A stretch of DNA of 63,486 bases, counting the filler, from Dugesia japonica (taxonomy: Eukaryota), in NCBI GenBank assembly GCA_001938525.1. It is 5 parts of 5 records of this genome, joined end to end, with 100 filler letters (N's around TTAATTAATTAA, not from the genome) between each part and the next. Parts side by side here need not be neighbours in the genome. Positions count along the whole stretch, not along the records: positions 30,731 to 47,088 come from MQRL01498293.1; 4 more parts are not named here. One strand, written 5' to 3'. The first letter of the stretch is position 1; each line of letters starts with the position of its first letter. The notes under the pieces are model-generated. The model saw only the letters and a program-made list of their open reading frames with translations, was not told where the DNA came from and searched no databases. The position numbers and the translations under genes are program-made. Positions 30,731 to 44,717 of the stretch are shown here, piece after piece.

Positions 30731-31000
30731 TAACACGAAGTAATTTACGAAAAATGCGCCATGCATGGCGCAAGATGTAAGATGAAAAAATGTGACACGA
30801 AGTATTTTATGAAAATTGAAAAATGTGACACGAAGTAATTTATGAAAAATATTTTATGAAAAAAATATTTTTTCATAAAATATTTTATGAAAAATGTAAT
30901 TTTATAAAAAATGAAAAATCTGACACGAAGTATTTTATGGAAAATGTGACACGAAGTAATTTATGAAATATCACACGATACATTTAAGAGGAAACATTTA
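30731..31000 (+). repeat. Left TIR of Polinton A (outer part cut by contig end)
   Basis: Reverse complement of 44283-44431 plus a 121-bp internal expansion; five ACACGAAGTA(A/T)TT units. Confidence 0.92.
30755..30772. promoter_or_regulatory. 18-bp perfect palindrome, copy 1
   Basis: TGCGCCATGCATGGCGCA; function inferred only. Confidence 0.6.
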
Positions 31001-31021
31001 GGTAAAGTAAGGTGAAAAAAG

Positions 31022-31060
31022 TGGCTACCTTTTGGCTACAAAGTGGCTATAATTTGGCTA
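31022..31060 (+). promoter_or_regulatory. Four TGGCTA direct repeats phased at 11 bp
   Basis: Starts at 31022, 31033, 31044 and 31055, ending 15 nt before the ATG at 31076. Confidence 0.55.
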
Positions 31061-31075
31061 TAGAAAAAAGAAGTA

Positions 31076-31615
31076 ATGGCATTAGAATATGAAAAGAAAA
31101 CATGTGAAAATGTTGAAAAAAGTATAAAGTGTGCAAATAATTTTGATTCTAATTTATTTATTAAATCTGAAAAAATTTGTTTAGTTTCAAAATATAAAGA
31201 AATTAAAATGAGAAATCCAAATGTGAAAGATCACATAATTGCAAAAGAAATGGGGATATCAACAATCACTTTAGATAAAGCATTAAGAGATTTAAATTTA
31301 AAAGATGAAAGAAAAAGATATCAAAGATTAAAATATTACTTTTATGAAAAAACAAAAACATTTATAAATGATCAATATGAAAATTATTTTTTTAATGTTA
31401 AAACAAAGAACTTTGAATTAATTCCCGAAAAACCTTTAAAAATAACATTAACAGAAAAAAGGAACGAAGCAAATGGAAATGATGAAAATGCCGCACCTAA
31501 ACGAAAAAGAGTAACACCAAGTGAGATTGGTGGAAAAGTTCATAAAGAAAATAAATATGAAGATGAAATAGAAAAATCTTTAAATGCTTATAAAACTCCT
31601 TTAAAAAATGGATGA
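31076..31615 (+). CDS. Putative HTH DNA-binding protein with NLS
   Basis: Intact 179-aa ORF; KDHIIAKEMGISTITLDKAL fits the HTH pattern; PKRKRV resembles a monopartite NLS. Confidence 0.6.
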   Translation: MALEYEKKTCENVEKSIKCANNFDSNLFIKSEKICLVSKYKEIKMRNPNVKDHIIAKEMGISTITLDKALRDLNLKDERKRYQRLKYYFYEKTKTFINDQYENYFFNVKTKNFELIPEKPLKITLTEKRNEANGNDENAAPKRKRVTPSEIGGKVHKENKYEDEIEKSLNAYKTPLKNG

Positions 31616-31838
31616 GTTATTGGATTATGTAAAACAAGATAAAGAGTTTAGAAAGAATTTATCTGAGAATTATAAAATTGTAAAAGAAGTTATATTACAT
31701 AATATTTATCCTCAAGATGAAATGTTTAAAGAAGCACTTAACATAGCAGGAGAAACAATTTATGATTTACAAACAAGAAATTATTTATTAGAGAACGAGT
31801 TAACTATAATGAGTCAATATGATGAAGAAAAAAATTAA
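31608..31838 (+). CDS. Small hypothetical Polinton protein
   Basis: 76-aa ORF overlapping the upstream stop by 8 nt. Confidence 0.5.
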   Translation: MDELLDYVKQDKEFRKNLSENYKIVKEVILHNIYPQDEMFKEALNIAGETIYDLQTRNYLLENELTIMSQYDEEKN

Positions 31839-40457: not shown

Positions 40458-40511
40458 TTTCTTTTATAAAAATATACATGATAATGTATTATTTATAATG
40501 TCTAATCTCGA

Positions 40512-43500
40512 TTACCACATTTCATATTTTTCACATTTATATTTATTTCCATGTGGCCGTGTTCTTATTCCATTATCTCCTATAATTCTTTTATCATCGA
40601 AAGCCATTAAGGAAATCTTTTTCTGTTCAACTAATTCAATTTCATGTGCATTGGATACTAATGAATAATTTGTTCCATAAAATTCTTTCTTTGGATCTTT
40701 TAATACTACATCAAAATCTTTCATTAAAATTTTATTGTTTTTCTTTAAACCTTTATTTCTTGAATCATATCCTCCTTCGTAAGTGTATCCATAAGATTTC
40801 GCTTTTATAAAATTACCTTGAATTATTTCTTTATTAGGTAATTCATCTTTCATTTGAAATAATTCATTTCCTAGTAAACTTTCTAGTTTTATTAAATTTT
40901 CTTTACCTTTTATCTCAACAAAGATTGAATCGGTGTCACTGTAATGTATTTTATAATTATTATTTCCTATTAAATGTGCCATTTGATTGTATATAAAATC
41001 ATACATTGTTTCTTTTGCATATTCAAGAATTTTAAAACCTATATATGGAAATTTATTATATTTTAATTTTGCTTTTATCATATGCATTGCCGCTACATTG
41101 GCTTCATTAGTATCATTTGTTGTAAATATTTTACTTGATTTAAAATTTACTTTAGATGCGAATTTTTGGTAATCTTTGTCATTATCTAAAATTTCTATGT
41201 TGCATCTATTTCTGATATTTTCTAATGTTTTTCCATAAAATACATTCAACATTAATTTATAAATATAATCACCGAAAACATCACCATTTCTTTTAGCTTC
41301 TTTTCTAAATTCTATTAATTTATGAACATAATTTCTAAACCATGGACATGTTTTCATTAAAAATTTCTTATGTACTTTTGTTAATTTCATTCCAAGTCTT
41401 ATATATAAATCTAGTGTGCTTCCAAGAACAACATTATTTTTCTTGTCAAATTGATTCAATGTAAGTTTAATATTTTTCTTTGATAATTTCTTACCAAAAG
41501 CTTTTTGATAATTACTTAACATTTCTTCTGTAATATTTATTCTTTCTGGACATAATGGAAAATATTTTGTTTTATCATGTAATTCTTTTGGATATTCTAA
41601 ATCAACTTCATAAATATAATTCATGTTTTCATTTGTTATTTCATATTCTAAATTTTTAGACTCACTGATTTCTCCTGTAGGTAAAGGTTTTGTCATACAA
41701 CTTGCATATAAAGAATTTTCATCAATATATTTTATAAATGTATCTTCAAAATAATCATCTGGAATATTTTTTCCTTCTTTTAATAATTTTATTAAATCTT
41801 CTTGTTGAGCTTTATTTATTTGTCTATAAAGTTTTTCTGAATTGTGAGAATAAACTTGTCTTTCTCCTGTTACACCAGAATATCCCCCTCTAATGCCTTC
41901 TTCTATTTTTAAGAATTGGTCATAAGTTTCAGATTTCGCATATTTTAATTTAACATTTCACATTCCCATGAATAACCTGGAGCTGAATATGAATAACATG
42001 GATCTAATTGTAAAATATTATTTAAACTTTTATTACGAAAATTTTCTATGAAATCTGAAAGGATTAAAACACCAAGTTTCATATAATGTAACATGTAATC
42101 ATGCATATTATCATGTTCTTGAAAGTCATCAAGAAATGCCGCATATCCATCATCAGTGATTCCTTTTTGTGTTAATGTATTAAAGAAATCATCTTTAGTT
42201 GGAATTTTATTTGATTTTAATAATTCTTCTACTTCTCTTAAATCTTTTCCTTTTACATATTCATATGGAAATAATGCTTTCTTAGGTTTTAAATTAAAGG
42301 AATTTAATATTGGATAATTATTTGATGCTGTTAATAATTTTCCCATCACCTCGACTGGTGTAAATGGTAATAATCTTGCCGAATCTAAAAATCTAATATT
42401 TCTTTTATATTCAAATGAAATATAATTATCTGATGAATGTGGAATTATTCTTTTAACTGAAGATGGATATTTTGTTAATAATTCTCTAAAGAATAAATGA
42501 TTATCATAACCAGATGCATTGTGAAAATAAAATGGTATAATTAATTTTTTATCAGAAAGATCATTTAAATTACATTTATTACATGACCATCCTCTAAATT
42601 CAACATTAAAATGATTATGATCTTTAACTGGAATTCCATATATTTCTTAATCACAATATCTACATTTTGTGTCGGGTATATATTCAGTAGCTTCTCCTGT
42701 AAATTCTTTTATTAATTTATTTTCTTTAATGTCTTCTAATTTATTATTCATTTCCTTTAAAAATTTAAAGAATTCTTTATGAAGATTTTTACCTGTGAAT
42801 AGATAATATTTACTTTCTAATAATTCTGGATATTCGCTAAGAAGATAAACACCTAAAGCTATAGCGTTTTGTTTTTTAGTTACTGTATCTGTGTAGGCTT
42901 CAAAATCTCCTATAAGTATAAATGGAATTTTATTTTTCTGATAATATTTATTAAATTGATAATAATCATTATATTCAAAAACAATATTATTTGGTTTGTG
43001 CTTAATACAAGCTTCTTGATGTCTCATTAAAATTTCTTCAGTTGAATAACAATTCATACATCTAAGACAAGGATAATTTCTATTAGTATTTGTTGTGAAA
43101 AATATAGACATATTTTGACATAAAATATAATGATCTTTATATACTATCAAATTACATTTATTTTCTTTTGGATCTGGTTTTACTATGTGATGTGAAACAT
43201 ATAATGGTTCAAGTTTTTTATTATCATTTACTCCGAACACATTTATTTTCCAATTATTTAAATTTTCGAATTTTTTTATTTCATCAATTTTTATTGGAAA
43301 TTTAAAATCTGTATAATCTAATTCCGATAAATGCTTAACATAATTTCCTACTCGTGTTGGATGATCAGATAGATATCTATGAGCTAAAATTGAATAAGGA
43401 AAACATTTATTATCATCATTTTTTATATTTATTACTCCTTGTTTTGTAAATGGTAATTTGCAATATGTTGCTCCTGCTAATGATTTATATTTTGATAATT

Positions 43501-44224
43501 CAATTTTATAACTAAGAATTTTTTTCAATGCCCATCCTGATTCAGATTGAGCTTCATCTTCAATATATCCTTGTAAATTGTTAAATATTTCATTAAAACC
43601 TTTTCCTATTTTAGATTGAATTACAAATCTTTTATTTGTTGAATAAGAAGTAAATTCTCTTTCTACATATTTCTCCTGTGATTCTTTTCCATATCGACAT
43701 TTTACCCACATGCTTACAATAATCTTTTTTCCATACTTAAAATATTTTTTAACTATTTCTCTAACTTCATCTTGAAATATGTTAATATCTTTAATTGGTT
43801 TTAAAAATGTTTGTTCTACATTTGTTTCGATTGTTACTTTACTTTCTTTAAAATAGTCAATTTCATAATATTTATATTGGTTTATAATTTCTCTAATCGA
43901 TGAATTTTCATTAATTGCTTCCATAGCTTTTAAATGCTTTTTAAAATTGTTTTGATGTTTCTTAGAATTTATGAGTTATTACATGATTTCTTCTAGTAAA
44001 GTGAGTGCCGCATATTCTACACGTTGTTGGAAAATTTCTTGTGTTTCCAAAAGTAGTTAAATGTTTTTGTAAACCAAATTGTGTTCTAAAGTTTTTTTTA
44101 ACATTTATTACATTGAAATGTTCTTCTTTCTGAATAACACGATCTATAATCAAGATGTCCTTTTAATCCTGCTAAATTCTTAAAAGTCTTTTGAGATTTT
44201 TGGACATTTGTTTATTTCACTCAT
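40512..44224 (-). pseudogene. Protein-primed family B DNA polymerase with N-terminal zinc fingers and endonuclease-VII-like insert; several stops and frameshifts
   Basis: GDFEA (ExoI), FHNASGYD (ExoII), YIDENSLY (A), KLMLNVFYGK (B), YSDTDS (C); CRYC..VKDHNH..FRGWSCNKCNL; three CxxC..H fingers at 43940-44224. Confidence 0.95.
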
Positions 44225-44282
44225 TTTATAAATTTTTAATTTAATCATATTAACTTTATATTTTAACAGAACACTTACATGT

Positions 44283-44717
44283 TAAATGTTTCCTCTTAAA
44301 TGTATCATGTGATATTTCATAAATTACTTCGTGTCACATTTTTCATTTTTCATAAATTACTTCGTGTCACATTTTTTCATCTTACATCTTGCGCCATGCA
44401 TGGCGCATTTTTCGTAAATTACTTCGTGTTACATTTTTCATTTTTCATAAAATACTTTCGTGTTACATTTTCCATTTTTCGTGAAATATTTTTTCATAAA
44501 TTATTTTTTCATAAATTATTTTTTCATAAATTATTTTTGATACAATATGTTATCGTGCGATATTTCTATTTAAAATAATTTATGAAAATCCACAAACGCG
44601 ATTTTCATAAATCGCAAAAAAAATAATTCATGAAAAATGCAATTTAAGAAATCTAAAATTTAAAATTCCGTTTTGAAATTTTCTTTTTTCGGCCGAAATC
44701 CAATATACTACACTACT
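44283..44717 (-). repeat. Right TIR of Polinton A (~435 bp)
   Basis: Inverted match to the left end; minus strand begins AGTAGTGTAGT, a Polinton-type terminus; outer limit inferred from that motif. Confidence 0.85.
44390..44407. promoter_or_regulatory. 18-bp perfect palindrome, copy 4
   Basis: TGCGCCATGCATGGCGCA in the right TIR. Confidence 0.6.

Follow-up and report, generated by a model that had tools for sequence, protein, structure and literature searches.

A decayed Polinton copy of a large, AT-rich family in Dugesia japonica, with phospholipase A2 and integrase apparently in one frame

Identity and layout of the element

A stretch of 63,486 nt from the Dugesia japonica draft assembly GCA_001938525.1 (five parts joined end to end with filler, hereafter the window) was analysed, and the element at positions 30731-44717 is very probably a dead chromosomal copy of a Polinton/Maverick of adintovirus type with an Alpha-class polymerase, one member of a large and diverged family in an AT-rich, repeat-rich eukaryote. 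This identification is based on the gene set, the layout, the lesions, the many sibling copies and the recovery of this same copy from independent read sets. Polintons encode a capsid, a penton, a packaging ATPase and a maturation protease, their protein-primed polymerase copies the element from its terminal repeats and their rve-type integrase inserts it into the host genome. The element is of an ordinary kind except that, as far as can be read from the sequence, its phospholipase A2 (PLA2) and its integrase appear to have been made as one protein.

The element is composed of two gene blocks facing each other (Table 1). The plus-strand block runs from an ATG at 31076 to 35650, with an in-frame extension up to 35770, and the minus-strand block from an ATG at 44224 to 35767, the two meeting at 35767-35770; GC skew mirrored this division. 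The open reading frame (ORF) map agreed with both the coordinates and the two convergent blocks of the first-pass annotation, as did the GC content (18-27%) with its description of the element as very AT-rich.

Inverted arms were found at 30731-30850 against 44312-44431 (117 of 120 positions identical) and at 30937-31000 against 44283-44346 (97% over 64 nt), and the two arms of the terminal inverted repeat (TIR) were mismatched at 5 of 184 compared positions. The right TIR is whole through its terminal hexamer, ACTACT at 44712-44717, which we take to be a Polinton-type terminus. Position 30731 is the first base past a 100-nt gap and about 286 nt are missing from the outer side of the left TIR, so the earlier description of the element as TIR-bounded is borne out at the right end and not at the left. 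Polintons make a 6-nt target-site duplication, which cannot be read here because the left junction sits in the gap. The gap is one of four 100-nt joins with an identical 12-nt spacer (10933-11032, 21229-21328, 30631-30730 and 47089-47188), and the sequences on either side of such a join therefore need not be real neighbours; the window, a gappy draft, carries 38 runs of N in all.

Hallmark genes and their placement

Pfam was scanned with 21 frames at curated cut-offs. Two pieces of the polymerase matched DNA_pol_B_2 (PF03175; 59.8 and 27.3 bits, cut-off 25.8), and the polymerase also carries N-terminal zinc fingers and an endonuclease-VII-like zinc finger; a Cys and a His of OTU type were seen by eye in the translation only. 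A polymerase piece had 319 homologues among 7,996 candidates scored, the best being 45% identical over 68% of the length of the piece, with 36% over the full length and 30-35% for matches from named animals. The packaging ATPase exceeded its Pfam cut-off (Table 1) and was 47% identical to that of the metagenome contig L002, its Walker A and arginine motifs each differing from those of L002 at a single position. The protease gave no match in Pfam or among PDB sequences; its His, Asp, Gln and Cys motifs were present by inspection, and it was 27-35% identical to 12 ORFs of related loci (E 8e-13 to 3e-5), which we take, from their motifs, to be proteases. The core protein, presumably of pX/cupiennin type, was recognised by its match to L002 (z 11.7). 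Searching PHROGs added matches to transposase, terminase and endonuclease VII only.

The capsid's own Pfam double jelly-roll match fell below the cut-off (E 0.013). When the capsid was used as a query, read with X at its stop, 20 homologues were found among 869 candidates, all 20 of which carry PF21738 (double jelly-roll); their identity to the query was 30-58%, and all lie on contigs of less than 6 kb without informative names. The closest (P0122-P0124, 57-58% identical) are open frames at full length. A capsid profile found no match among PDB sequences, and in a capsid scan of IMG/VR 0 of 85 stretches were confirmed. The polymerase, ATPase, protease, core and major capsid assignments of the first-pass annotation were all upheld by these results, and its word "divergent" is apt, the capsid being at most 58% and the polymerase at most 45% identical to anything found.

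A capsid tree (FastTree, 118 rows: proteins of 380-500 aa, the query and locus ORFs, with six near-identical rows omitted) grouped the query with P0122-P0124, P0126, P0130 and P0138 (support 97), on a 53-row side (support 100) apart from the related loci L012, L017, L019, L020 and L029. In a polymerase tree of 74 rows (P0046-P0120 and short matches omitted) the query formed a long branch, at a point where the program warned of several long branches meeting, in a 14-row group of unnamed rows, apart from the rows of Macrosteles, Amphiura, Montipora, Oculina and Stegodyphus. The trees suggested at first pass both placed the query outside the clades with named animal rows; they were built from rows other than Repbase Polintons, and neither includes a named adintovirus.

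The PLA2-integrase frame

A zinc finger, a PLA2 and an rve integrase lie in one frame of the plus block, interrupted by a single in-frame stop (33935-33937). The PLA2, of parvovirus type, matched Phospholip_A2_4 above the Pfam cut-off and the integrase matched rve (PF00665) with 39.1 bits against a cut-off of 32.6, as its earlier naming had implied; the PLA2 His-Asp and integrase DDE motifs were seen by inspection. The complete frame aligned over 464 columns (45% identity) with one open 441-aa ORF of L002, which itself has zf-U1, PLA2 and rve matches. The name PLA2X given at first pass had to be abandoned, as the pX tail, of a type seen in L017 and L029, is absent and the PLA2 is the in-frame front part of a zinc finger-PLA2-integrase. 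The integrase frame ends where those of L002 and L074 end, with no C-terminal chromodomain; the integrases of L012, L017 and L020 extend, by eye, into a chromodomain-like tail.

Both PLA2 and integrase were present on 13 distinct contigs. In five of these the integrase lies 109-168 nt downstream on the same strand, and among the five the two genes are open and in frame in L002 and L074 and in frame with one stop in L001. In the remaining eight the two matches are on opposite strands, 2.4-3.6 kb apart, and the ones inspected were of PLA2X type. Gly-Gly or Gly-x-Gly linkers were seen between the fusion domains of the relatives. No report of a PLA2-integrase fusion was found in the accessible parts of the papers searched, nearly all of them open literature.

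Two further features of relatives were observed. In L012 (8011-8060) and L020 (995-1075) PLA2 and integrase overlap in different frames directly after A runs, an arrangement that would point to ribosomal frameshifting or else to a damaged fusion gene. In L074 (3169-3600) an insertion of ~300 nt, which by eye looks like an intron, seems to split the PLA2 gene.

Family size and expression

Part of the stretch was contained in 13 runs from 6 studies, 12 of them under one organism label. Four of 24 runs were mapped to 31001-45600 at 85% identity, giving 49,956 unitigs on the element in DNA run X2 and 50,835 in DNA run X4, from two studies. The X2 unitigs were distributed over a wide range of identity (3,522 at 99% or more, 10,145 at 95-99%, 22,845 at 90-95% and 13,444 under 90%). 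Their summed depth, which is not equal to copy number, was 24,000-86,000 over the capsid, integrase, ATPase, protease and polymerase core, ~8,500 over the flanking retroelement and 223-692 over ORF2, ORF5 and the right repeat. These data show that the element belongs to a large, diverged family, of which a small subfamily has these termini. The search of raw reads proposed at first pass yielded many siblings, with about 50,000 unitigs per DNA run, mostly 90-95% alike; the accompanying suggestion that intact siblings may exist held for the siblings themselves, at least one lesion being private to this copy, and neither an intact nor an extrachromosomal copy was demonstrated. A family of this abundance is likely to be present in repeat libraries as DNA/Maverick. 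A search of the available part of the PMC8502044 supplement for five short peptide motifs gave 0 matches.

The two RNA runs mapped, which do not represent all tissues, gave a slight signal: X14 had 75 reads placed out of 10.5 million and X15 had 622 out of 13.6 million, mostly as partial matches. Depth on the element nowhere exceeded 2.5, compared with as much as 20 on the flank.

Penton and the remaining virion genes

The first-pass annotation credited the element with a full virion module, which was an overstatement. In the 260-aa penton-related ORF only residues 157-259 matched pentons (probability 98.7), so its penton call stands for the C-terminal half; residues 1-150 scored no better than shuffles against all seven pentons compared (0 of 7 with z above 1.1). 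Residues 1-60 instead look like the beginning of another conserved Polinton gene, which six related loci carry and which immediately precedes the penton in L002 and L074; 1 of 300 shuffles scored as high as the summed match, a result that shuffling may overrate as the stretch is helical, and in a profile test 68 of 1000 did so. The rest of that conserved gene had no match in six frames of the element. A homologue search with the ORF returned 0 of 556 candidates, and models from a single sequence and from an 8-row alignment reached a predicted local distance difference test score (pLDDT) of 37 and 40, with which Foldseek found nothing at E ≤0.001 and was uninformative. An apparent full colinear N-terminal half, noted by eye, was discarded after the score of residues 40-115 was equalled by 86 of 300 shuffles. 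On balance we lean slightly towards a deletion chimera over a whole divergent penton; the length of the ORF, typical of pentons, and the sharing of part of the N-terminal half with other copies count against the chimera.

The same observations bear on the strongest alternative to the account given above, namely that virion formation was lost in the family as a whole, which then spread only as a transposon inside cells, the half penton being family-wide and the virion genes relics. The lack of penton signal in residues 1-150, the unmatched neighbour gene of the six related loci and the slight RNA signal all fit this alternative, as do differences at 39653-39678 that are carried by thousands of depth units and indicate that this part of the odd N-terminal half is shared with siblings. 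Against it, the virion genes were kept through the expansion, because the depth of capsid, ATPase and protease at ≥85% identity matches that of the polymerase; the close capsid relatives are full-length open frames; and the N-terminal half of the penton may be too divergent for small profiles. Loss of virion formation is accordingly regarded as unlikely, while retaining an appreciable share of the probability.

The other minus-block genes were assigned with less certainty. The membrane protein has two hydrophobic segments (hydropathy 2.2 and 2.0) and is probably of the class called GasderminX. With a profile of three sequences (genes of L019, L020 and L074), 2 and 5 of 1000 shuffles scored as high as its two pieces, modest support for the first-pass call; with a 2-sequence profile the match was not significant. 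The fibre-like label fared worse: the N-terminal motif behind it is weak, its score being equalled by 162 of 1000 shuffles with a 6-sequence profile, and z was 3.7 against one hand-picked relative. ORF1 had no Pfam match and no significant PHROG match. ORF1, ORF2, ORF5 and the body of the fibre-like gene had no match in 76 related loci. ORF2 showed low depth (bin 31488-31974), and over ORF5, which lies between two palindrome copies and is common to few family members, depth fell from 31,428 in the preceding bin to 463 in bin 34897-35383.

Decay of the copy

At least 13 lesions were counted across eight genes, and five of the six hallmark genes are interrupted. In-frame stops, seven in number and all TAA, occur in the capsid (32646-32648), PLA2-integrase, ORF5, ATPase (36373-36375), fibre-like gene, protease and polymerase (42647-42649). 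At least six frameshifts affect the capsid (a frameshifted, partly deleted stretch near 33040-33125), the membrane protein, the fibre-like gene and, three or four times, the polymerase (one near 41950 and about three within 43960-44210). The copy is dead, and it probably accumulated these lesions at its present site through point mutations and small indels. With the broken hallmark genes, the gap at the left end and a penton of which half is recognisable, the element is less complete than first described.

That the lesions are errors of the draft assembly in an intact provirus is improbable. The window is a draft with 38 N runs, and other unitigs differ from it at the ATPase stop and the fibre-like frameshift. 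Those deviating unitigs are explained by siblings: at the ATPase stop nearly all depth in X2 and X4 carries another sequence, and the stop is private to this copy. Assembly error is unlikely above all because zero-difference unitigs from two independent studies cover 43960-44128 (X2) and 44071-44314 (X4), the site of the polymerase frameshifts; the number of lesions and the divergence of the TIR arms from each other also oppose it.

That a virus genome, either free or a contaminant, was joined into the scaffold is, in our estimate, even less probable. Consistent with such an origin are the gap on the left and the nearest capsid relatives, which come from short metagenome contigs. The right TIR, in opposition to this, continues gaplessly into a retroelement, an exact X4 unitig extends 30 nt past the terminus (one short of the bridging threshold), the genes are decayed, the same organism label recurs in runs of 2014-2025, and two further Polinton remnants are present in the window. 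Least probable of all is that TAA is a sense codon in the host, an idea prompted by all seven in-frame stops being TAA. The residues of relatives at three aligned breaks are mixed (no single residue class, and not glutamine). TAA also closes the integrase and the ATPase at the points where their L002 counterparts close, the ATPase stop is peculiar to this copy, frameshifts break the same genes anyway and TAA is the expected nonsense codon at 77% AT.

Table 1. Features of the element and its immediate flanks (positions along the window)
Feature	Position	Strand	Basis or remark
Scaffold gap (44 N, 12-nt spacer, 44 N)	30631-30730		masks true left end
Left TIR, inner part, 33-nt tandem units	30731-31000	+	repeat comparison
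ORF1, 179 aa, open	31076-31615	+	helix-turn-helix-like stretch by eye
ORF2, 75 aa, possibly cut by a frameshift	31611-31838	+	present in few family members
Double jelly-roll major capsid protein gene	32106-33414	+	Pfam weak; homologues all PF21738
Zinc finger-PLA2-rve integrase, one frame, 450 codons	33566-34918	+	Pfam; alignment to L002
Palindrome copy	34920-34937		2 nt past integrase stop; same as TIR copies
ORF5	34964-35650, may reach 35770	+	in-frame stop 35138-35140
Palindrome copy	35745-35762		5 nt beyond ATPase stop
A32-type packaging ATPase	35767-36519	-	PF04665, 25.2 bits (cut-off 22.8)
Membrane protein with hydrophobic hairpin	36582-37174	-	frameshift near 36905
Long gene, weak fibre-type N-terminal motif	37167-38608	-	frameshift near 38390; in-frame stop 37314-37316
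Adenain-type cysteine protease	38615-39076	-	in-frame stop 39056-39058
Penton-related ORF, 260 aa, open	39148-39930	-	penton match at C-terminal half
Core protein, 153 aa, open, hydrophobic Gly-rich helix	39996-40457	-	z 11.7 against L002
Protein-primed DNA polymerase B, Alpha (PF03175) class	40512-44224	-	Pfam; homologues
Right TIR, 435 nt, whole through terminal hexamer	44283-44717	-	repeat comparison
Decayed LTR retroelement (gag-like frame, zinc knuckle, reverse transcriptase, RNase H)	44726-47088	+	Pfam; reads
LTR, long terminal repeat; TIR, terminal inverted repeat.

Repeated motifs and neighbouring elements

A perfect, GC-rich palindrome of 18 nt occurs in four exact copies (30755, 34920, 35745 and 44390; 0 expected by chance), one in each TIR and none in the window outside the element; a search of IMG/VR gave 0 occurrences. 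An Rfam scan gave 0 matches. The palindrome may serve gene 3' ends and the termini as a cis signal (3'-end or replication), and the optional presence of ORF5 could be the outcome of recombination there. This combined role of a putative cis signal and recombination point behind ORF5 is put forward as a possibility of rather low probability.

Runs of a 7-nt unit were seen in three spacers (33429-33510, 36528-36583 and 39079-39100), upstream of the PLA2-integrase, ATPase and protease starts, and are a possible regulatory motif. A poxvirus-type late promoter at four gene starts, which would imply dependence on a helper virus, was considered and rejected, as the exact motif is absent in relatives: L001, L002, L012, L017, L019 and L020 have A-rich gene starts without it. 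No passage on promoters was found in the accessible part of PMC11296320.

The retroelement beyond the right TIR is presumably of Ty3/gypsy type. Its RNA depth (44812-47088) was 14-20 in X15, and 115 reads continued into other sequence before 44726; this upstream continuation was not found in the window. Other decayed LTR retroelements were noted at 11756-16273 (minus strand; reverse transcriptase, RNase H or rve matches) and, by eye, at 52858-63128. Another capsid gene of this element's clade, in a more advanced state of decay, lies at 5776-6760 (minus strand), with 63% nucleotide identity to the capsid gene of the element over 967 nt and 55-68% protein identity to P0124. A third Polinton remnant was located at 47514-49613 (minus strand), where the integrase is 43% identical to that of L017 and penton-like and core-like frames are present; we take these frames to be of classic animal Maverick type. 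Related short repeats (family D3) at 3022-3090 and 50671-50926, near these two Polinton remnants, may be the ends of another element.

Discussion

The feature that sets this element apart is the PLA2-integrase frame. In the ancestor, a zinc finger-PLA2-integrase polyprotein may have been packaged and cut by the element's own protease at Gly-rich linkers, which presumably fit the adenain cleavage rule, the freed PLA2 then serving membrane entry and the freed integrase reaching the next host genome. We regard this putative packaged, protease-cut polyprotein as a tentative proposal with a little under an even chance of being right. Wider still, and somewhat more doubtful, is the proposal that the element represents an undescribed, AT-rich Polintovirus clade, massively amplified in a well-studied eukaryote, whose zinc finger-PLA2-integrase polyprotein, without a chromodomain, would be cut by the protease in the virion in the manner of Gag-Pol, bringing the integrase along in the particle.

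Several observations weigh against these interpretations and, in part, against the identification itself. The gap has taken the left terminus and with it the target-site duplication, the window yielded no host gene, and the depth on which the size of the family was judged is, as stated, not copy number. In two of the five adjacent cases (L012 and L020) PLA2 and integrase are in different frames, and in L035 a zinc ribbon-PLA2 stands alone.

Were the fusion real, its recurrence in contigs that differ in polymerase and capsid would mark it as an ancient module of this virus group that has gone unreported, and it predicts that the integrase is a protease-processed virion protein. In its accessible text a 2026 preprint states that Polinton virions have never been observed, and Starrett et al. 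(PMC8502044), in the portion available, describe indirect evidence for virions. How Polintons enter cells and deliver their integrase to a new genome is the gap to which the fusion speaks. The very large size of the family, in an organism with many RNA studies, means that its silencing could be observed, as could particle production if some copy retains it.

Comparison with published systems was made with the available portions of the sources cited. Decayed germline copies of Polintons are widespread (PMC8502044, PMC12451622, 10.64898/2026.06.19.733378), and because they are common in animal genomes this single locus matters little. Polintons/Mavericks correspond in the same sources to the adintoviruses, Eupolintoviridae (formerly Adintoviridae) of the Polintoviricetes. 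With the Eupolintoviridae the element shares a PF03175 protein-primed polymerase, rve, an A32/FtsK ATPase, an adenain-type protease, a double jelly-roll capsid, a penton-related gene, TIRs and a length of ~14 kb. Unlike those described, its PLA2 lacks pX and is in frame with the integrase, there is no chromodomain, and half a penton is recognisable; adintovirus integrases carry a C-terminal chromodomain (PMC8502044).

In the scheme of Starrett et al. (PMC8502044), Alpha adintovirus polymerases are of the pfam03175 class with an N-terminal OTU domain, the Alpha (Mayetiola-class) virion module has PLA2X, a PLA2 with a C-terminal pX-like domain, and the Beta (Terrapene-class) module has GasderminX and cupiennin-like genes. 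By that definition the polymerase of the element, taken at sequence level, is of Alpha class, and its putative GasderminX-like and cupiennin/pX-like accessory genes look, by description, like those of the mixed Alpha-polymerase/Beta-accessory type reported in that paper. Contigs L019 and L020 of IMG/VR, going by the presumed names of their accessory genes, have a similar Alpha/Beta mix, also with PLA2. The pairing of PLA2 with a membrane protein was at one point considered unique to the element and is found in L019/L035 and L020 as well. Mavericks 1 and 2 of Spodoptera (PMC5803895) also have a parvovirus-type PLA2, rve, a protease and a PolB2 with an endonuclease VII match; unlike the element, their PLA2 ("CAP") is a separate ORF and their integrase has a chromodomain.

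Among the relatives used here, L001 and L002 are JGI metagenome contigs and L074 is an IMG/VR contig. L002 (GC 23%) has six genes in common with the element, with identities of 39% for the capsid, 47% for the ATPase and 45% for the fusion ORF. Gene order in L001, L002 and L074 differs from that of the element, L002 and L074 have a whole penton after the conserved gene that the element lacks, and the polymerase of L074 appears, by eye, to be of the other class. Oligo-dT libraries among the runs point to a eukaryotic host, and the retroelements, together with the remnant of animal Maverick type, suggest an invertebrate; Hydra or a fungus might also agree with the picture. Within planarians, the Maverick expansions described in the accessible parts of 10.64898/2025.12.11.693146 and PMC8532177, with low GC, joint expansion of Maverick and Gypsy elements and Polintons silenced by PIWI-interacting RNAs, fit the window by description.

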